A stretch of 64,000 nucleotides of DNA, from NCBI GenBank assembly GCA_963666365.2, contig CAXXNF010000001.1, forward strand, positions 1,088,001 to 1,152,000. Reading direction: 5' to 3'. The stretch's first letter is position 1. Each line of letters begins with the position of its first letter. The notes beneath the pieces are model-generated. The model saw nothing but the letters and a program-made list of their open reading frames with translations. It was not told the origin of the DNA and ran no database searches. The translations under genes and the position numbers were made by a program. Below, piece by piece: positions 7,430-64,000 of the stretch. Source of the stretch: Syntrophales bacterium (GTDB taxonomy: Bacteria > Desulfobacterota > Syntrophia > Syntrophales > UBA2210).

Positions 7430-7538
7430 GCACGCACAGGTCCTCCTGTCCTGAAAATCTTTCGGCCCGTGTAAAATTGAGACCGGTTAACAGTACCGCG
7501 GTGATTGAAAGGGTGCCGCACTACGGTCTGTTGCCGAA

Positions 7539-55838: not shown

Positions 55839-57377
55839 ATGGGCTACCGTGAAATCACGTGCAGCATGCCGACCGAGTATGGTGAGGACGAACTGCGACG
55901 GGCCATCAGGAGTACACTCGGCGTCAGTGATTTTTCCTTTAGGATCGAGGGCAAGAGCCTCGATGCGCGGAAGAAGCAGGACATTCACTGGGTTCTTCGC
56001 ATCGCAGTGCTTTCGGAAGAACTCAAAGGGGGCGAGCCTCCCCCGCGACCGGCACTCTCAATCCCCTTTCGCAAAAGAAACAGGAAGGTGCTGGTAACAG
56101 GGAGCGGTCCCGCCGGTTTTTTTGCCGCCTATGTGCTTCAGAAAGCAGGATTTCATACCGTCATTATCGAGCGTGGCGCCGAGGTAAAGACGCGGGCCCT
56201 CGGCATCAGGGACTTTGAAGCGGGCGGACCCTTCAATCCGACCTGCAATTACGCCTTCGGCGAGGGGGGCGCCGGCGCCTTTTCCGACGGGAAGCTTACA
56301 TCCCGTTCGAAACATATTTCCAGGGAGAAGGAATTTATCCTGGAAAGCTATATCCGTGCCGGAGCTCCTGAAGAGATCCGCTATATGGCCCACCCCCACC
56401 TGGGAAGCGACAACCTGAAGACTATAGTGCGCAATCTGCGCAGGGCCTATATGAACAGCGGCGGTACGATCCTGTTCGAAACATCGCTCCTTGACATCAG
56501 GGTAGTGCGCGGCCGCGTCATGGAAGCGGAAACCTCTACGGGCATCTATGAAACCGATTACTGCATTGTCGCACCGGGTCACTCCGCCTATGATACCTAC
56601 CGCATGCTGATACAAAAGGGGGCGCCCTTTCAGATTAAAAATTTCGCTCTCGGATCACGTGTGGAGCATTCCCAGGAACTGATCAATCGCGCCCAGTGGG
56701 GACGGGCCGAGCTGCCGGGGGTAAAGGCCGCCGAATACCGGCTTACCTCAAAGGGGGATGGAATACTGCCCGTTTATACCTTCTGCATGTGTCCCGGCGG
56801 CGTGGTGGTGCCTGCCACCGCCTACGGGCATACCAACATCGTGAATGGCATGAGCCGCTATAAAAGAAACGGCGCCTTCGCAAACGCGGCCTGTGTGGCG
56901 GCCGTAAATCCCGAAGCGCTTAGAGGGCAAAAGACCGACCCCCTGGAGGTCCTCCAGTGGCTCGAAGAGCTGGAAGAAAAATTTTTTCACTATGCCGGGG
57001 GATTTTGTGCACCCTCCTGCTCCATCAAAAATTTTATAACCAAGGAAGAACCTTCCACGAGTGTCGCAACAAGCTATCCCCTGGGATTGAAACCGGCGGC
57101 CCTGTGGAATCTGCTGCCTGCACCGGTAGGCTCAGCCATTCGTGAAGGATTGAAACATTTTTCCCGCAAGCTACGGGGATTTGAAAAAGGAACCATCATG
57201 GGGCTTGAAAGCAAGACCTCTTCACCGATCCAGGCATTGAGGGAACAGGGCGGACGCTGCCGAGGCTTTGAAAATCTTTTTCTTGTAGGTGAGGGAAGCG
57301 GGTGGACCGGCGGCATCATTTCGAGCGGCGCCGACGGCATCAGGACCGCACTTCACATTATCGATCACGCGAAATAG
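55839..57377 (+). CDS. FAD-dependent oxidoreductase (uncharacterized conserved family)
   Basis: GSGPAG, FGEGGAGAFSDGKL, FCMCPGG, GEGSGWTGGI.S. Confidence 0.9.
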   Translation: MGYREITCSMPTEYGEDELRRAIRSTLGVSDFSFRIEGKSLDARKKQDIHWVLRIAVLSEELKGGEPPPRPALSIPFRKRNRKVLVTGSGPAGFFAAYVLQKAGFHTVIIERGAEVKTRALGIRDFEAGGPFNPTCNYAFGEGGAGAFSDGKLTSRSKHISREKEFILESYIRAGAPEEIRYMAHPHLGSDNLKTIVRNLRRAYMNSGGTILFETSLLDIRVVRGRVMEAETSTGIYETDYCIVAPGHSAYDTYRMLIQKGAPFQIKNFALGSRVEHSQELINRAQWGRAELPGVKAAEYRLTSKGDGILPVYTFCMCPGGVVVPATAYGHTNIVNGMSRYKRNGAFANAACVAAVNPEALRGQKTDPLEVLQWLEELEEKFFHYAGGFCAPSCSIKNFITKEEPSTSVATSYPLGLKPAALWNLLPAPVGSAIREGLKHFSRKLRGFEKGTIMGLESKTSSPIQALREQGGRCRGFENLFLVGEGSGWTGGIISSGADGIRTALHIIDHAK

Positions 57378-57431
57378 CTTCCCGGGAATTGTTTCCACCG
57401 ACCGATTATAGGGGGGCATATGGTCTAAGCA

Positions 57432-57826
57432 TAAGTGGGAACTGGATTCAACCACACTTATTGCAGCTCTATTGCGCGCCCGTACCAAGCATTATAAATT
57501 ATAATCAGTTGGTTAGAAAATAGCGAAGTGGAATTTATTAGCAAGGCGGCTCTTAGGTTTGGTTTGGCCCATTTTTATAAAAATTCCCGTATTTTGATAT
57601 TTTTGTCAAATGGTATGCCATTTCAAATATTTTACCGCAATATTGCAACACAATAAAATCACTTTTAAAATTGACAACACCCCTTCTCTCAACAGGAATT
57701 AAGTGGGAACATGGGTACAATATACTGGGAACACAAACCGGAAACAGAATAAATATATTATAACTTAATGATATTACATCGAATTTATTTAGTTTTATCT
57801 AGGTGACTATAAATTATTCTGGAAAC
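57432..57826 (+). repeat. Candidate transposase-binding repeats
   Basis: TAAGTGGGAAC at 57432 and 57700; variants AAGTGGAAT 57526, CTGGGAAC 57725, CCGGAAAC 57738, CTGGAAAC 57819. Confidence 0.6.
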
Positions 57827-57835
57827 TATATAAAT

Positions 57836-58321
57836 TTACAAGTTGCTGTTCTCAGTACCATCGGTTTTCAAGATTGATGCAACCTCCTTCTGTAATTCAC
57901 CAAGCTGGTTTTCAACACTCTTTATCTGCTTTTTAAGCTCCGCAATTTTAGGACTGTTGTTTTTAATATCTATTTCATAATCACCGAAAATACCCATAAA
58001 ACGTTTTGTACTAAACATTAGAAGGTTTAAATTTTTTATTAGCGAGTCAAGCCTAATGTCTTCCAGGGCGATGTCTAGTATCCCTAATTCTTCAGTGGAG
58101 GTCAACCCGTCACCCATTGGCCCCTCTCCATAACGCAACCACTTTTCACTAAGATCATAGACGTTGCAAATTAACTCAATTAATTTATCCGATGGAAGCA
58201 TGCCACCCGTTTCCACTTTGGAAATAAGAGGCTGATCTACCTTAAGGCTGTTAGCAAACGCTTTTTGCGACACCTTAAGCATACTTCTTAAACTATGTAT
58301 TCTTTTACCAATATCAGACAC
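57836..58321 (-). CDS. XRE-family HTH repressor with C-terminal coiled coil
   Basis: IGKRI..LR...SQ..FA..L.V.Q..ISKVETG...WLRYGEG; divergent from ner. Confidence 0.85.
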   Translation of the reverse strand: MSDIGKRIHSLRSMLKVSQKAFANSLKVDQPLISKVETGGMLPSDKLIELICNVYDLSEKWLRYGEGPMGDGLTSTEELGILDIALEDIRLDSLIKNLNLLMFSTKRFMGIFGDYEIDIKNNSPKIAELKKQIKSVENQLGELQKEVASILKTDGTENSNL

Positions 58322-58341
58322 TTAAAAACCTTCCTTCAAAA

Positions 58342-58391
58342 ACCATAACCACCATATTTTATCTTGACATTATGGTAATTATGGGTATAAT
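58342..58391 (+). promoter_or_regulatory. Early sigma70 promoter overlapped by operator-like inverted repeats
   Basis: TTGACA(58364)-16 nt-TATAAT(58386); ACCATA-acc-ACCATA ... TATGGT-aat-TATGGG. Confidence 0.75.
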
Positions 58392-58401
58392 CATAGTTAC
58401 G

Positions 58402-58749
58402 ATGAAAAAGAAAACAAAAAAACCCTCAAATATTCAATGGGAACTAATTAAAACCTTGCTTTTGGCTCGCGGCTATTCACTTGCCGATCTTGCCCGTCTG
58501 TATGGGGTAAATCCTGCTTGTTTCCGGTATGTAAAAAAAATACCTTACCCCAAAATTGAAAAAATTATAGCCAGTTACCTTGGCGTTAAACCCCAGGACA
58601 TATGGCCTGAACGATACGACGAAAACGGAAAGCCCAACAGAATTAACCAATGGTACTTGAGGGGCTCCCGTAAGGTGCAAGATACCACAATTGCAGAAGA
58701 ACAAAAAAGCAAAAATACCAAAAAGACAACAGAGGCGGACGGGCAATAA
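58402..58749 (+). CDS. ner: Ner/Nlp-like DNA-binding protein
   Basis: IK..L..RG.SL..LAR..G...PYPK.EKIIA.YLG..PQDIWPERY. Confidence 0.88.
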   Translation: MKKKTKKPSNIQWELIKTLLLARGYSLADLARLYGVNPACFRYVKKIPYPKIEKIIASYLGVKPQDIWPERYDENGKPNRINQWYLRGSRKVQDTTIAEEQKSKNTKKTTEADGQ

Positions 58750-58750
58750 T

Positions 58751-60844
58751 ATGCAACAATGTGACTGGTATACCGCGCAAGAGTTAGCCGATATGAATTT
58801 GCCCGGCATTCCCAATACAAAACGAGGTGTTAATAAATTCGCGTCTAAACATGCGTGGCCTTTCAGGAAACGAAAAGGAAAAGGCGGCGGTCGTGAATTT
58901 AACATCCATTCCATCCCCCATGCGGCGTTAACTGCATATATGCAATCAAACTTTCCACTCAATCAAATAACACACGCCCAGGACCGCAATTCCAATGACG
59001 ATATAGATTGCATTGCATATGCTAACGCCCCTGAATACAACAGAAAAATAGCCGACAAATATTTAAAATGGATCAGGCGCTTTGACGGTTTGTGTGGCAC
59101 CGAATTGAAAAGCGCCATCAGGCAAGAACAGAAGCTAAATCCCAATATCGACGTGCCGAGCTATCGTCGCCTTAATGCGTCAAGAAAAATATACGAACGT
59201 GAAGGCGTAGAAGGTCTTCTTGGGAGTTATGGCAATCGGGCGGGCAAAAGCAAGATACGCCCGGAATGGCAAAAGCATTTTAACTCATTGTATTTAACTG
59301 AAAAATTGCTTTCCGTTCGGGCATGTTGGAAAATGACATTAGGGAAATTTTGCAATGATAAAGAAGGGGCATCTTCCTTTCCCTCACCTACGGCCTTCCA
59401 AAGACGGCTTGAACAACAATTCCCGAAGTCTGCGATATATCTACATCGGTATGGCTTTAAAAAATGGAATCGAAAGTTCGGAAATTATATCCCCCGCGAC
59501 ATTTCCGATCTTAAGGCGGGTCAATGCTGGGTAGCAGATCACGCCCAACTTGATATATTTGTCAGGTTGAAAAACGGAAAGGTGGTTGCCCCCTGGGTGA
59601 CTGCCTGGATCGATGCAAAGTCAACAAAAGGATTAAGCGCACTACTTCACCCCGATCCGCCCAATTCTGACCATGTATTTCAAAGCTTTCATCACGCTGC
59701 AATTAAATTCGGTCTGCCTGAGTGTATCTACCTCGACAACGGGAAAGACTACCGATGCAGAGACTTTGCCGGAAAACCCCAAAAACATACAGTCAATATT
59801 GACGAAGCACAAACGACAACGATGATGTCTCTTTTGAATGTTGAGGTAATTTTTGCCATTCCGTACAATGCCCAAGCGAAACCAATAGAACGCACCTTTT
59901 TGAAATTTAAAGAGTCTTTTTCGAAAAACTTTGAGACATATCGGGGGGGTAATGTTATAGAGCGCCCCGAAACCCTCCTTCAAAAAATCAAAAATGGCGA
60001 ATCTGTCTATTTTGAAGAATTTGAACGCTGCTTTAATGAGTATGTCTTTGAAATATATAACAAAACACCGTCACACGGAAGGTATTTGCAGGGACGTTCA
60101 CCAGACGACCAATGGAATAGCGAATCTCCTATAAAACGCATGGTTTCAAAAGAAGCGTTAAAACTATTCTGTATGCGTACCTCAAAGCCTGTTGTTATTG
60201 GTCGTAACGGGATCAATGACGGAGACTTTGGGGTAAGTTATTGGTCTGATTGGATGATACATTATAAGGGCCGCAAGGTTTACGTTCGCAGGGATATTAA
60301 GGACTTTAACGAAGCCTGGGTATTTAGCGCGGAAACGGACGAATATCTTGGCAATGCCTTTCTTGTTGGATTGGTGCCGTTTCTTGCAAAAACTCCGACC
60401 GAGAAAAAAATTCTAAAGGAATTGATGGCTGAAAAGCGCCGTGAGGTTAAGCTGCTCCGCGAGTTAGGAAAATCTGATTACGTTCCTTCCGTTCAGGAAA
60501 GGCTGACTCACCTAAAAAAGGCAACTATGCTTCTTAGCCCTGAACCGGTCCCCGAAGGACAACAAAACGTTGTGTTGCTCGCTAATACTAAGATGGATAA
60601 AGTTGCACTGGCAAAAAAACAACACGCAAAATCATTGGAGATCAAGGAAAAATTTCTTGATAAATTGTACCCGAAAAGCCAGGGCACAGACAATTCTAAT
60701 GTAAAAGTACCCGATATGTTTGATAGATTTGCAATGGAGCCGATGCCTAACGTTACCCGCGACCAGGAAGAGGAAAAGCCGGAATATAATTTTTTTGAGC
60801 TGTTGGGGAAGGTGAATAAACAAAAATCACAAGGCGGCATTTAG
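58751..60844 (+). CDS. MuA-like DDE transposase
   Basis: N-terminal Mu-type DNA-binding domain (W.TAQELA...LPG.P....G...GKGGGREF); DDE WVADH, YLDNGKD, KPIER. Confidence 0.92.
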   Translation: MQQCDWYTAQELADMNLPGIPNTKRGVNKFASKHAWPFRKRKGKGGGREFNIHSIPHAALTAYMQSNFPLNQITHAQDRNSNDDIDCIAYANAPEYNRKIADKYLKWIRRFDGLCGTELKSAIRQEQKLNPNIDVPSYRRLNASRKIYEREGVEGLLGSYGNRAGKSKIRPEWQKHFNSLYLTEKLLSVRACWKMTLGKFCNDKEGASSFPSPTAFQRRLEQQFPKSAIYLHRYGFKKWNRKFGNYIPRDISDLKAGQCWVADHAQLDIFVRLKNGKVVAPWVTAWIDAKSTKGLSALLHPDPPNSDHVFQSFHHAAIKFGLPECIYLDNGKDYRCRDFAGKPQKHTVNIDEAQTTTMMSLLNVEVIFAIPYNAQAKPIERTFLKFKESFSKNFETYRGGNVIERPETLLQKIKNGESVYFEEFERCFNEYVFEIYNKTPSHGRYLQGRSPDDQWNSESPIKRMVSKEALKLFCMRTSKPVVIGRNGINDGDFGVSYWSDWMIHYKGRKVYVRRDIKDFNEAWVFSAETDEYLGNAFLVGLVPFLAKTPTEKKILKELMAEKRREVKLLRELGKSDYVPSVQERLTHLKKATMLLSPEPVPEGQQNVVLLANTKMDKVALAKKQHAKSLEIKEKFLDKLYPKSQGTDNSNVKVPDMFDRFAMEPMPNVTRDQEEEKPEYNFFELLGKVNKQKSQGGI

Positions 60845-60855
60845 AGGAGGTCAAT

Positions 60856-61830
60856 GTGGCTGCTCAAGCTGTTGCGAAAAAGGAAAATACTCTCCAAGAG
60901 ATACCGGAATATGGTTATTATACAAGACTTTCCAGGCGGTTTAGTTACACAATCAGAAGCCGCAATAACCCTTTTTCGTGGACTAGCCTTGCATTTCTTA
61001 TGAATAGGCCAGCTATGCAAATCAAACAATTTGCAGAGGGCATTTTTGATGATTATCTTTCTCCGATGATTGCCAAAGACGTTGAAGCCTTCCTGGTAAA
61101 ATATGAAACAGAGGAAACCCGCTTTGAGGATGATATATGTCAAACCTCTTTTTACACAGAAATATTTCAAACATGCCAATTTGCACGTGATTCCGTAGAC
61201 ATGGCCATCATTGACGGACAGGCGGGATCGGGAAAATCTGTTGCTTTGAGAGATTTTAAACGGCGTGATCCGCTTGCAATCATGATTACTCTTGACCCAT
61301 TGACAAAAGCACCCTCGACAGTTTTACCGCTTATAGGCAAACAGGTTCCCGTGAACACGTCAGATGCAAATAAATCGCAAATATTACAAAACATTATAGG
61401 GGCGCTTACAAACAGCAAACGCCTATTGATAGTCGATGAAGCGCACTTTTGCTCATGGGAGACATTAGAAACGCTTCGTCGCATTCATGATGCGGCGCAA
61501 GTAGGCGTTATTTTGTGTGGTCAAGAGCGCCTTTATAAGCAAATGAAAGACCCTAAATCAGGGTATCTGTGGGATCAGATCAGCTCACGTATTGGCATAA
61601 GGGCCACCCTTAAAAATATCAGAAGTGAAGATACGGAAATGATATGCCTTCGGTTGTGTCCAGGGCTTGACCCTAAGTGTTTGAAATATTTACATCAAAT
61701 AGCGCAAGATTCGGGCCGGTTCAGACTCGTTGCAAAAATACTCAAAAAAGCAATCAAGTTTGCAGACATTGACAAAGAAGCCGTGTCTTATGAGCTTATT
61801 CAAAGCATTGCGGCACAACATATTCTATAA
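60856..61830 (+). CDS. MuB-like AAA+ transposition ATPase
   Basis: GQAGSGKS, LLIVDEAH, LRRIHD, ILCG, SRIG. Confidence 0.9.
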   Translation: MAAQAVAKKENTLQEIPEYGYYTRLSRRFSYTIRSRNNPFSWTSLAFLMNRPAMQIKQFAEGIFDDYLSPMIAKDVEAFLVKYETEETRFEDDICQTSFYTEIFQTCQFARDSVDMAIIDGQAGSGKSVALRDFKRRDPLAIMITLDPLTKAPSTVLPLIGKQVPVNTSDANKSQILQNIIGALTNSKRLLIVDEAHFCSWETLETLRRIHDAAQVGVILCGQERLYKQMKDPKSGYLWDQISSRIGIRATLKNIRSEDTEMICLRLCPGLDPKCLKYLHQIAQDSGRFRLVAKILKKAIKFADIDKEAVSYELIQSIAAQHIL

Positions 61831-61846
61831 ACAGAGGGCTTATTTT

Positions 61847-62164
61847 ATGAAAAAAGAATTATCGCCAGAAGCACAGCGGGCTTTACGACGCCTAAAAACG
61901 GATGAAATTGAAGCGATACAAAAAAGCAATCCTTTCCGCAATGAACGAAACGAGGCGATTTATAGCTTAAGAAAACTAGGGCTAAAACATTCCATTCTTT
62001 CAGAGATTACGGGTATTTCCCTTACTCAAATGAAAAAGATTTGTCCAGGAAAACGCCGCGAAGAACAAAAGCAATTAGGGGCATTACAAGCGGGTATAGG
62101 ACCGCTCACCGAGGAAATCATAGCCTTAAGGGAGGCGATAGAAGAGTCGTTAAAGAACCGATGA
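61847..62164 (+). CDS. Small HTH protein, Mor/C activator-like
   Basis: RNEAIYSLRKLGLKHSILSEITGISLTQMKKI resembles the Mor-type HTH pattern. Confidence 0.55.
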   Translation: MKKELSPEAQRALRRLKTDEIEAIQKSNPFRNERNEAIYSLRKLGLKHSILSEITGISLTQMKKICPGKRREEQKQLGALQAGIGPLTEEIIALREAIEESLKNR

Positions 62165-62292
62165 TCCACTATTCAAACGCGCAAATACATATCAAATTAC
62201 CGACTAACACACTTTAGGCTTGGGTTTTAGTGCCGATTGAAATGATTTTAATTACGTTTCCTTATTGAAAACTAAAACTGAAAGGGAGGTAA

Positions 62293-62802
62293 GTGACTAT
62301 GGGGCATGAATTTTTAAAGACCGAAAAATGTGAGGAAGTACCTTTTGTTTCTGGCAGTTTGATAGACGACCTTGACGCTTGGTCCCGGAAATTGCAGGTA
62401 CTTGGGGGAGCAGTGAGTACAATTGCATGGTATAAGAGCAGAAATGTTGATAGTGATTGCTTTTTTGAGACCCAGGGCGAAACTTTGGGGCAGATTATTG
62501 AAGACTACGCCAAAGCCATAGAATTAACCATAGAGAAAAACGCCGCTATCTTTTCCGACCGAAAAGAAAATATCGATATTTTGATTAAGGGGTGTCAAGA
62601 AACCTATGATATTGTAAGTAAAAACCGTCACATTTCTGATATATGCGCGATAGATCGCCGGGTAGCGGAACTTGATGAATTTTTAAAGGGTGCGCTTGTC
62701 CCGGCAATGCGCTTGAAAAACAACTTTGAAACCCTAAAAAGGGAGATTCTTGCAATCAATAAAAAAGCCCCCGAAGCTGTGGCGGCAGCAGAAGGAGCCT
62801 AG
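62293..62802 (+). CDS. Hypothetical helical protein
   Basis: GGGAGG SD, 169-codon ORF, no recognisable motif. Confidence 0.7.
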   Translation: MTMGHEFLKTEKCEEVPFVSGSLIDDLDAWSRKLQVLGGAVSTIAWYKSRNVDSDCFFETQGETLGQIIEDYAKAIELTIEKNAAIFSDRKENIDILIKGCQETYDIVSKNRHISDICAIDRRVAELDEFLKGALVPAMRLKNNFETLKREILAINKKAPEAVAAAEGA

Positions 62803-62869
62803 GAAAAGGGACTTGAATAATCCCGTAAGCTGAAAATACTTTTAACGTAAAAAGAAAATGAAATCAAAA

Positions 62870-62925
62870 TGTTCCGGCTAGGGTAGCTCCCGAAAAGGCG
62901 GTTTCCTCGCCGCCTTGCCGGAACA
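62870..62925 (+). ncRNA. C4/CI-like antisense RNA (three-way-junction cloverleaf)
   Basis: P1 tgttccggc/gccggaaca; P2 ggg-tagct-ccc; P3 aaggcgg-tttcctcg-ccgcctt; loops complementary to downstream gaggggcaacc. Confidence 0.7.
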
Positions 62926-62944
62926 AAGAAATAGAGGGGCAACC

Positions 62945-62998
62945 ATGAGGGGGTTGTGCGGATCGTCGTGCAATCCCCTTTTTACATATACAGTTTAG
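62945..62998 (+). CDS. Putative 17-aa leader peptide MRGLCGSSCNPLFTYTV
   Basis: GAGGGG SD then ATG; spans a terminator-like hairpin. Confidence 0.45.
   Translation: MRGLCGSSCNPLFTYTV
62947..62983 (+). terminator. Terminator/attenuator hairpin inside leader ORF
   Basis: gagggggttgtgcg / cgtgcaatcccctt stem with GU pairs, followed by TTT. Confidence 0.55.
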
Positions 62999-63015
62999 CC
63001 AAGGAGGTTTAGCGC

Positions 63016-63483
63016 GTGGATATAAAAAATAAATATGACGCGGTTATTGGGCGCGAGGGGTTGGAACACCTGAAAGACATTGTTCTTTCAAGAAGTAACG
63101 TTACCCCTGGAAAGATCGACGCAAACCAGAGGCACATAAACCGCCTTTTGGGGATCGGAGATGAAGTATTCCTAAAATACTCACAAGATTGTCAACCGGG
63201 CGCTCTGGCCGCGAAAGCGCAGACACGGGCAGCACTCAACGCCTTTCGGAATGCCGGTGATCTTGTGTTTTCAAAGTATCGAAACAACCCCGAAAAGTGG
63301 CCCGAAATCATTGACGAATGTCAACGAAATATTAACGAATTGATGGGAATCAGCGACGAGAGCTTTGTTGATTATATGTGTAAAAAGGAAGCCCAAGAAA
63401 ATAGCACTATCGATGAAACCCAGCGAAAAATTAATCAAATAATCGGTGTGGATGATGAAACCTTTAAAAAATACAACAAATAA
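63016..63483 (+). CDS. Hypothetical protein with 3-4 internal ~22-aa repeats
   Basis: AAGGAGG SD; repeats IDxxQRxINxxxGxxDExFxxY. Confidence 0.8.
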   Translation: MDIKNKYDAVIGREGLEHLKDIVLSRSNVTPGKIDANQRHINRLLGIGDEVFLKYSQDCQPGALAAKAQTRAALNAFRNAGDLVFSKYRNNPEKWPEIIDECQRNINELMGISDESFVDYMCKKEAQENSTIDETQRKINQIIGVDDETFKKYNK

Positions 63484-63504
63484 TTTCAAATAGGAGGACA
63501 AAAT

Positions 63505-64000
63505 ATGCTTCCAGCTTTAAGAGGTGAAGAAATTGCCGCTCAGGTTCTGAATGCATCGGGCGGTGGCGGTGCATCCATAAAGAAATATTTTAAACTGGAT
63601 ACTGTCAAATTTTCATGGGTGGATGATTACCTTCGGGACGAAGCCTTAAGGAAGAAAATCCAAGGGTTAAACGACAAAATCAACGAAATGCACAATTCGC
63701 CTATGCATAAAGATGAACTTCGGGCGCTGTTTGAATCTACCATTGACCAAATCAATAACGAACGCCGTTTGTGGTTCGAGGAAAAGCTCAAGGCCGTGCA
63801 GAATAGAAAAGGTAGAATGATATACAGTGACATGTTGATTTACAATGCAAGCCTGTATATTTCTCCCATTGGCCTTTCAAAAGGAGATATTGACCAAATA
63901 TTTGCCAACATTCCTGAAGGCGTCAAACAGGCAGACATTACGACCGCCATCGGAAGAATGCAGGAAGAGGTTGCGGAAATAGAGGCTGTTATTGAAAAAG
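63505..64000 (+). CDS. Hypothetical coiled-coil-rich protein, truncated by window end
   Basis: AGGAGG SD, ATG 63505 (MLPALRGEEIAAQ...), frame open to the edge. Confidence 0.75.
   Translation, partial: MLPALRGEEIAAQVLNASGGGGASIKKYFKLDTVKFSWVDDYLRDEALRKKIQGLNDKINEMHNSPMHKDELRALFESTIDQINNERRLWFEEKLKAVQNRKGRMIYSDMLIYNASLYISPIGLSKGDIDQIFANIPEGVKQADITTAIGRMQEEVAEIEAVIEK

Follow-up and report, generated by a model that had tools for sequence, protein, structure and literature searches.

In a 64,000-nucleotide window of the genome of a Syntrophales bacterium (positions 1,088,001-1,152,000 of a 1.54-Mb contig, in a genome of 4.0 Mb) we find an element of 7,998 bp, at window positions 57407-65404, that carries the ends and the early genes of a transposable phage of the Mu type, followed by a short series of accessory genes. 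Two points are well supported: the element is intact, derives from Mu and was inserted by transposition as a unit of 8 kb, and it has compact relatives with which it forms a lineage that conserves an accessory module. One gene of this module, o155, encodes a protein which, from its sequence, repeats three times the C-terminal tail of gpI, the protease/scaffold protein of Mu-type heads, and such elements are probably satellites or capsid-interfering hitch-hikers of phages with heads of that type. Coordinates above 64,000 lie past the window and are extrapolated (contig position minus 1,088,000), and the coordinates of the element's own locus, L002, become window coordinates on adding 57,000.

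An 8-kb insertion with Mu-type ends

Since the window lies inside the 1.54-Mb contig, the element could be traced rightward beyond position 64,000. The GC content falls from ~56% to ~42% at 57,400 and is back at the host level near 65,400, and between these points the element opens with TATAGGGGGGCATATGG at 57,407 and closes with CCGGCTAACTATA at 65,404, the ends being found by motif scan and read directly. A 5-bp target-site duplication, CCGAT, abuts both ends (left copy at 57402-57406, right copy at 65405-65409, extrapolated and outside the window; both copies read directly, with both flanks in the motif scan). A preliminary description of this DNA had placed the left end at 57421, 14 bp from the true end, and had predicted a duplication GCATA and termini of the TG/CA type, none of which agrees with the CCGAT duplication and the TA...TA termini that we read; its proposal of a compact element, as opposed to one extending over ~35-40 kb, has held, with the right end and the duplication found 7,998 bp from the left end. 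The left neighbour is a host gene for a 512-residue protein that ends at 57,377, and the right neighbour is nrdJ, a class-II ribonucleotide reductase gene that starts at 65,564. Both genes are adjacent, with no insert between them, in G001, the sole other genome of the same genus (a sister species), so that the ~8 kb at this locus are an insertion; the spacer between the two genes in G001 is ~140 bp of diverged, unalignable intergenic DNA, and the comparison is thus purely one of gene adjacency. Contigs from two sequencing runs of one sample, which may be the source of this genome, span the whole insertion and contain no junctions to alternative insertion sites, and two further runs contain next to none of the stretch.

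In Mu itself, the left end has the transposase site L1, a spacer and then L2, and at the right end R1 and R2 are contiguous. The element has imperfect inverted termini of the form TATAG...CTATA. Its left end (attL, 57407-57835, plus strand), with the terminus TATAGGGGGG, has a terminal site L1 at ~57417-57433 and an inner site L2 at ~57556-57572; both are weak matches, L2 lying ~150 bp further in, with 5/17 mismatches in the site scan. The right terminus, ...CTAACTATA (ending at 65404, extrapolated; sequence read directly), has beside it two identical 17-nt sites 22 bp apart, R2 at 65356-65372 and R1 at 65378-65394 (both extrapolated), which appear as repeat D19 and in the site scan. Paired right-end sites at the same 22-bp spacing are also present in three relatives described below (loci L026, L036 and L186), of which L026 and L036 have the same TATAG...CTATA termini and L186 has TG...CA. 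The left-end motif TATAR-N6-10-RTGGWNTG is common to L026, L036, L031 and L103 and to the viral contigs L275, L306 and L307, the last of which is 39 kb long; the presence of a TATAR-type left end in viral contigs makes the odd terminus a trait of the clade and not an artefact. As a positive control, the same end-detection logic recovered a canonical Mu-like prophage in G196, a genome of the same order. This prophage spans 38,850 bp (G196:C1:523961-562810, loci L370 and L371), with TG...CA ends, a duplication AAATT and tandem 22-bp right-end sites, and its MuA gene lies 17 kb upstream of that for gpI, which ends in ...EDTFKKYNQ. A generic scan for a 24-nt inverted repeat with a 5-bp duplication was rejected, since its scores of 15-20 in AT-rich loci were those of chance and the element itself escaped it.

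A Mu-type early region without recognisable virion genes

The gene order at the left is that of a Mu-like early region. A c-type repressor of 161 residues, with an XRE helix-turn-helix (HTH) domain and a helical C-terminal part (57836-58321, minus strand; Pfam HTH_19 at 6.8e-08 and HTH_3; PHROG transcriptional repressor/regulator families), is divergent from the genes that follow, all of which are on the plus strand. An early, Pe-like promoter, TTGACA-16-TATAAT (58364-58391), is predicted purely by its match to the sigma-70 consensus (12/12 positions, the best of 31 sites). Behind it stand a Ner-like regulator (58372-58749; HTH_35, 1.7e-16; phrog_769, 5.6e-22), whose true start is probably the internal Met near 58402, a MuA-type DDE transposase (58691-60844; phrog_310, 6e-100) and a MuB-type AAA+ transposition ATPase of 324 residues (60856-61830; AAA_22, 1.6e-17; Phage-MuB_C, 5.7e-08; phrog_296, 1.5e-51). 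MuA is listed with 717 residues and has a database form of 697 that starts 20 codons later; it carries all four Mu-specific domains, HTH_Tnp_Mu_1, HTH_Tnp_Mu_2, DDE_2 and Mu-transpos_C (PF02316, PF09039, PF02914, PF09299), its acidic residues are invariant in an alignment of 12 relatives, and it is single-copy in the genome. All listed open reading frames (ORFs) of the element are open, and the domain sets of MuA and MuB are full. No ORF of the element matches a lysis, terminase, portal, head or tail family in Pfam or PHROG, and the ORFs after MuB match neither GemA nor Gam. The repressor divergent from ner-MuA-MuB, as first described, has thus been found in full with family matches throughout, and the impression that gam, gemA and virion genes are lacking from what follows agrees with the blank scans. 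Behind MuB come, in this order, o144, o169, a structured RNA, o155, o255, o95 and o81.

A triplicated scaffold tail

The protein o155 (155 residues; 63016-63483, plus strand) consists of three repeats of the pattern ID..QR.IN.L.GI.DE.F.KY and ends in ETFKKYNK followed by the stop codon. An exhaustive HMMER search retrieved just 46 representatives among 1.84 billion proteins, most of them short and made of the repeats alone, and several with the repeats at the C-terminus, behind the N-terminal domain PF10123 (Mu-like prophage protein I, protease/scaffold), which scored 2.3e-50 in P0144 and 1.3e-54 in P0176. The element's own protein has the tail repeats only and no PF10123 match. Among viral contigs fetched through a search with the PF10123 domain, o155 matched 44 of 80 gpI loci, and in each of the 15 that were inspected of these 44 the match was to a single tail at the C-terminus of gpI, ending in ...KKY plus 1-6 residues, with the exact end ETFKKYNK in 10 of the 15. 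The open frames of the inspected gpI proteins measure 335-628 residues, counted from the preceding stop codon, and those viral contigs carry ordinary Mu-type head modules (terminase, portal, MuF, gpG, gpI, gpT). In sequence, o155 is thus the extreme tail of the scaffold, present in triplicate and separated from the remainder of gpI. The earlier suggestion of a protein built from scaffold-tail-like repeats is confirmed by the HMMER relatives, the PF10123 proteins and the viral gpI tails.

One relative, P0144, is a 'mini-gpI' of 243 residues with two copies of the tail, and its N-terminal domain is 87% identical to the gpI of a viral contig; it comes from a contig of 1.5 kb, and a search of genome contigs with it gave three gpI relatives (48-72%) and one short match at the level of chance. 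Against GenBank phages, o155 had no match at E<=0.01, as a short query with the low-complexity filter on. A complex predicted between the gpT capsid protein of the viral contig L199 and the last 66 residues of o155 scored 0.01, the mark being 0.32, and this score speaks neither for nor against binding.

A lineage of compact elements

At E<=0.001 the database contains 791 relatives of the transposase, of which the closest is 59% identical. The loci retrieved for comparison, with 10-kb flanks, were 160 MuA loci of metagenomes and genomes and a further 80 of viral contigs; a single-protein MuA search of genome contigs gave no relatives. Three further compact elements of ~7-13 kb (L026, L036 and L186) share parts of the module. 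The nearest relative by MuA, L026 (59%), is an element of 8,518 bp between host genes, with a duplication TCAAT and termini like those of L002. It has the same order of repressor, Ner, MuA, MuB, o144 homologue, o169 homologue and structured RNA, and behind the RNA come a gpI-like protein of 220 residues (phrog_976, 7e-22), a relative of o255 that covers its first two-thirds (hhalign probability 83%), a zinc-ribbon motif and a DUF3800 protein. In L036 (MuA 46%; 12,954 bp; duplication TCTCT) there are GemA and a Mor-family protein and no virion genes; an IS630/DDE_3-type transposase gene lies inside this element near its right end (L036:14008-15630) and is probably a secondary insertion. L186, on a contig of a Desulfonema metagenome-assembled genome, has a MuA only 26% identical together with homologues of o169, o155 (84 residues), o255, o81 and o144, and its right end shows the tandem 22-bp sites and a TG...CA-type terminus with host genes directly beyond. 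Two other loci, L027 and L065, hold parts of the module on short contigs. The Mu-type head proteins of L199 have no match in L026, L036, L065 or L186.

A FastTree phylogeny was built from 54 of 211 distinct MuA sequences, the rows being chosen: 4 from compact elements, 2 from module-bearing loci, 26 from viral contigs of 33-47 kb, which are labelled as full phages by length alone, and 22 others. A clade with 98% local support contains L002, L026, L027, L036, L065, L070 and L291 and none of the 26 long viral-contig rows, while L186 sits on a long branch elsewhere in the tree. The possibility, raised in the preliminary description, that relatives in the MuA clade might be ordinary phages is thus met by a nearest relative that is itself compact and by a clade free of the long viral contigs placed on the tree. 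Homologues of o144, o169, o155, o255, o81 and o95 are all missing within 10 kb of MuA in the 80 viral loci. With flanks of only 10 kb, a listing of ORFs of at least 380 residues downstream of MuA in 78 loci could not tell complete phages and compact elements apart.

A structured RNA and terminator ahead of o155

Upstream of o155, at 62871-62938 on the plus strand, lies a structured RNA of the Rfam family int-alpA (RF02996), a three-way junction that scores 49.1 bits against a gathering threshold of 35.8 (E 5e-08). The match covers model positions 1-71, and the fold is an outer stem that encloses two hairpins. In L026 the same family is found at the equivalent position with 48.8 bits. What had been described as a C4/CI-like RNA module is therefore a structured RNA, as proposed, and a member of another family: C4 (RF01695) gave no match at E<=10, and the sole member of its clan to appear, c4-a1b1, did so at an E-value of 3.2, which is noise. 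Directly 3' of the RNA follows an intrinsic-terminator-like hairpin of 15 bp with UUUUU (62947-62985, plus strand), and the fold of 62865-62995 reaches -56.1 kcal/mol (z -4.29), with 0 of 200 shuffles as stable. In P4, the CI RNA is an immunity RNA of the CI/C4 kind that gates the genes downstream of it, and by analogy int-alpA would fit a leader or immunity RNA gating the downstream genes. The centre of the RNA (62888-62904) is 94% complementary over 17 nt to the coding sequence of the first repeat of o155 at 63138-63154 (codons 41-46, 200 nt downstream), the best of 476 windows in the duplex scan (repeat I10); this pairing has no equivalent in L026.

Right after the RNA there is a short ORF of ~17 codons (62938-62990) that starts with MRG and has the 3' AGGGG of the RNA motif as its ribosome-binding site, and a leader of similar sequence (MRDN.EG...) forms one reading frame with the scaffold-like protein in two homologues, P0141 and P0144. 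Another contig of the genome has a weaker int-alpA match of 29.6 bits, below the cut-off (G000:C2:446632-446698, locus L357), in an island with the order integrase, XRE regulator, RNA, 396-residue ORF and primase/helicase, and with a second integrase nearby. The island may be a satellite-like element of the integrase type.

Other accessory genes and surroundings

Between MuB and the RNA lie two genes on the plus strand. The first, o144 (61730-62164, start likely at 61847), encodes a small HTH protein at the place where Mu has Mor, with homologues in L026, L027 and L186. It had been called a Mor-like HTH protein, of which the HTH part stands, an Atlas look-up giving HTH_23-type neighbours (weak, 0.82); membership of the Mor family finds no support, given no Pfam match to the Mor/C activators (PF08765) at E<=0.01 and an hhalign probability of 0.03 against the Mor protein of L036, a comparison of low sensitivity with a single-sequence template. 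The second, o169 (62293-62802), is a conserved protein with no family match in Pfam or PHROG and with homologues in L027, L186 (34% over 151 residues) and L026 (40% over 52 residues); the Atlas look-ups for o169 and o144 gave weak leads, with scores of 0.82-0.85.

Downstream of o155, o255 (255 residues; 63505-64272, plus strand, of which the window holds the part to 64000 and the rest is extrapolated) has a conserved PYPQGCRWT motif and is modelled by AlphaFold as long helical hairpins (pLDDT 87.6), in keeping with the coiled-coil protein noticed at first behind the repeat protein. None of its 18 homologues has a Pfam domain. Neither PDB nor BFVD has a fold that matches at E<=0.001, and an uncharacterised phage protein comes closest at E 7e-3; in sequence, nothing in PDB is better than E 0.24, and the profile has no match in the viral contig collection. 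Homologues of o255 adjoin homologues of o155 in L065 and L186. Among 401 genomes sampled from the phylum, the second of the two with the family has a distant copy (26% identity) in L270 (G393:C10, ~362800-372000), an island of ~9 kb with a tyrosine integrase, a DnaB-like helicase, a DUF1599 protein and this o255 relative, a further small integrative element with a protein of this family.

Between o255 and o95 stand two GC-rich repeats of 72 nt that form long hairpins (64277-64348 and 64455-64526, extrapolated; L002:7277-7348 and 7455-7526; repeat D1, 82% identity). Their folds reach -36.8 and -31.8 kcal/mol, no Rfam family matches them, and the genome has no copy elsewhere. At the equivalent place in L026, after the o255-like gene, there is a GC-rich stretch with a similar GAGGGTGCTGG motif. 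The next gene, o95 (64637-64924, extrapolated, plus strand), is 59-64% identical to minus-strand ORFs next to gpI in 4 of the 80 viral loci, a second connection between the element and these viruses. In one of these viral contigs (L199:8608-9213) the o95 homologue and a 103-residue ORF form a minus-strand pair within the plus-strand head module, between gpG and a 449-residue ORF with a DRAT-like ADP-ribosyltransferase domain, which looks like a moron cassette. The last gene, o81 (65034-65279, extrapolated, plus strand), encodes a zinc-ribbon protein whose motif recurs in L186 (52% over 44 residues) and L026 (61% over 18 residues). Beyond the element and downstream of nrdJ, there is an ORF of 2,077 residues (68061-74294, extrapolated; L002:11061-17294), and beyond it a second patch of low GC content (43-48%) at ~74000-76000 (extrapolated).

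Proposed life cycle and candidate helpers

Transposition as a compact unit is well supported, and the element is best read as a natural 'mini-Mu' of a compact lineage, which has kept the early core of Mu and has lost, or never had, the genes for lysis, head and tail. Its most likely role, to which we give about an even chance, is that of a satellite which exploits phages with Mu-type heads; MuA and MuB would replicate and integrate the element, and o155, as its sequence suggests, would divert capsid assembly. As in known satellites, most virion genes are missing, and the element has its own regulation and its own genes for replication and integration (Pfam and PHROG matches, promoter scan). 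The use of helper capsids, and with it capsid binding, packaging, dependence on a helper and regulation by the RNA, is what we infer. The element would rest repressed in the chromosome, and on derepression MuA and MuB would copy it to new sites by replicative transposition. Transcription running past the int-alpA RNA and the terminator would lead to expression of o155 and o255, and o155 would then fill the sites at which a gpT-type capsid protein binds its scaffold, in a phage with a Mu-type head that shares or infects the cell, and would divert or block the assembly of that phage's capsids. Copies of the element together with flanking host DNA would leave in helper particles by headful packaging, as laboratory mini-Mu does, and integrate in the next cell through MuA. 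Somewhat short of an even chance, we would say, is the broader claim that such elements form a new class of satellites, marked by Mu-type replicative transposition in place of an integrase and a replicon, by the seizure of Mu-type capsids with a multivalent mimic of the scaffold tail, and by take-over genes gated by int-alpA, an RNA leader that integrase-type islands have as well.

Helpers are conceivable in the host's order, where 14 of 339 genomes have PF10123, several of them with the tail motif; candidate helpers are thus present there, one of them being the complete transposable prophage of G196. Several observations weigh against the satellite proposal. In this genome we found no second MuA and no other o155-like sequence, and a search for PF10123 gave no match, its control being likewise without signal, so that no resident helper is seen. 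The Pfam and PHROG scans recognised no terminase small subunit, pac site or capsid-size gene in the element. The o255 family is rare, occurring in 2 of 401 genomes sampled from the phylum. Two members of the MuA clade, L070 and L291, have no detected end sites, as is also the case for L065 and L027, and L065, again of this clade, has its o155 and o255 homologues between Mor-like and C-like late-activator genes, on a contig that stops at 8.9 kb and could be a complete phage that owns the module. Among viral records with a tail-bearing gpI, 0 of 5 had a MuA match, and among MuA-bearing viral records 0 of 5 matched that gpI, blanks which show little. The C-terminus of the scaffold holds the capsid protein in other phages and in herpesviruses, and binding of the gpI tail to the capsid protein in Mu-type heads would follow by analogy with these.

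Alternative explanations

The strongest competitor is an autonomous compact transposon that spreads by transposition and ordinary gene transfer alone, without specific packaging, and whose o155 serves the host as an anti-phage decoy, poisoning Mu-type capsids; we consider it unlikely, though deserving of attention. It would have the same anatomy (MuA/MuB core, ends, duplication and scaffold-tail mimic), and it would sit well with the single copy of the element, with the lack of a recognised packaging function and with a genome in which no helper is seen. The repressor, Ner, the promoter and the RNA with its terminator, on the other hand, resemble a switch between lysogeny and induction rather than a constitutive defence, and known capsid-interfering islands are also packaged (PMC5644958). 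A decoy and a satellite are, moreover, mutually compatible.

Decay of a larger phage would account for the element in a different way, as what is left, 8 kb from the left side plus the right end, of a Mu-like prophage of 37-40 kb whose late region has been deleted, leaving it functionless. An internal deletion would likewise spare the two ends with their duplication, there are complete relatives of 33-47 kb, and fragments of a head module are present in the form of the scaffold tail and of o95, which is common to viral head modules. Yet the ORFs are open and the MuA and MuB domain sets full, and three compact elements of the same design occur elsewhere, two with duplications of their own and one with a MuA of only 26% identity; nor would a deletion scar yield the threefold repeat of o155, which a whole family of short proteins conserves. 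We therefore regard decay as improbable. A similarly low probability attaches to an ordinary cargo transposon of the MuA/TniA-TniB type, with accessory genes unrelated to particles. Transposons of the Tn552, Tn5053 and Tn7 types are likewise built around a DDE transposase and an AAA+ protein, MuB has a weak TniB match exactly at the cut-off (22.4 bits), and o169, o255 and o81 have no known function; set against this are HTH_Tnp_Mu_1, Mu-transpos_C, Phage-MuB_C, Ner and the divergent repressor, together with an o155 clearly derived from a virion-assembly protein and an o95 shared with viral head modules. That the genes are no more than the early part of a Mu-like prophage that is complete, a caveat of the preliminary description, is next to impossible given the right end and duplication at 65404-65409, nrdJ from 65564 and the adjacency of the flanking genes, without an insert, in G001.

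Comparison with known systems and implications

With Mu-like phages the element shares the divergent repressor, Ner, MuA and MuB, the multi-site ends (R1 and R2 at 22 bp) and the 5-bp duplication; it differs in its size (8.0 kb vs 37-40 kb), in having no match to lysis, head or tail genes, GemA or Gam, and in its TA...TA termini, which replace TG...CA and recur in the viral relatives L275, L306 and L307. The nearest named records are Bacillus phage BalMu-1 (39.9 kb) and Rhodovulum phage vB_RhkS_P1 (38.8 kb), with MuA proteins 26-30% identical. Laboratory mini-Mu similarly combines Mu ends, A and B without virion genes, and it is replicated by transposition and, given particles from a helper Mu, packaged along with adjacent host DNA; the present element differs in being natural and in having relatives that conserve an accessory module of their own. 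The likeness of its RNA to the CI/C4 RNAs of P4 and P1 would lie in its small size, its outer stem enclosing two hairpins and its place at the start of an operon, here with a terminator behind it and with 17 nt complementary to a site in the next gene; the difference lies in its family (RF02996, not RF01695), and L026 does not conserve the 17-nt pairing. To the integrase-based satellites (P4-like, PICI, cf-PICI, PLE, PICMI) it is similar in its size class (~7-13 kb), in having no or few virion genes, in its own regulation and replication and, if the putative role of o155 is right, in a gene aimed at helper capsid assembly; it differs in that MuA/MuB transposition with 5-bp duplications at random sites takes the place of a site-specific integrase and a primase/replicase. 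For Tn7/Tn5053-type transposons (TnsB/TniA with TnsC/TniB) the likeness comes down to the TniB match at the cut-off, and no search was aimed at TniQ.

To our knowledge, all well-described satellite families integrate by a site-specific recombinase. In the literature covered, search listings and passages of PMC13612085 and bioRxiv 10.64898/2026.05.11.724261, we found no description of a satellite based on MuA/MuB. The available parts of two satellite surveys, PMC10085698 and PMC9618062, make no mention of Mu-like elements or MuA; the former has there no word starting with 'transpos', and the latter has one, on Tycheposon-like serine recombinases. The closest parallel for the putative action of o155 is CpmB of SaPI1, which competes with the scaffolding protein of the helper for its site on the capsid protein (PMC5644958). 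CpmB and o155 have no sequence relation, o155 has three tail copies and its binding and any effect on capsid size are putative, and SaPI1 moves by an integrase, the element by a DDE transposase.

Virus-detection pipelines would probably miss such elements because they lack hallmark virion genes, and the elements may be under-counted, the search of viral contigs with o255 having remained blank. If the satellite proposal is true, a MuA/MuB satellite would be a new form of phage parasitism, with insertion at random sites, replication by transposition and packaging together with host flanks. Since flanking host DNA would be packaged, each transfer would carry host genes, and this could drive both gene transfer and insertional mutation. 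The o155 family offers a simple, testable idea, namely that a multi-copy scaffold tail redirects or poisons capsid assembly. Even if the element is no satellite, a natural mini-Mu lineage with TA termini would be of interest to the biochemistry of transposition.

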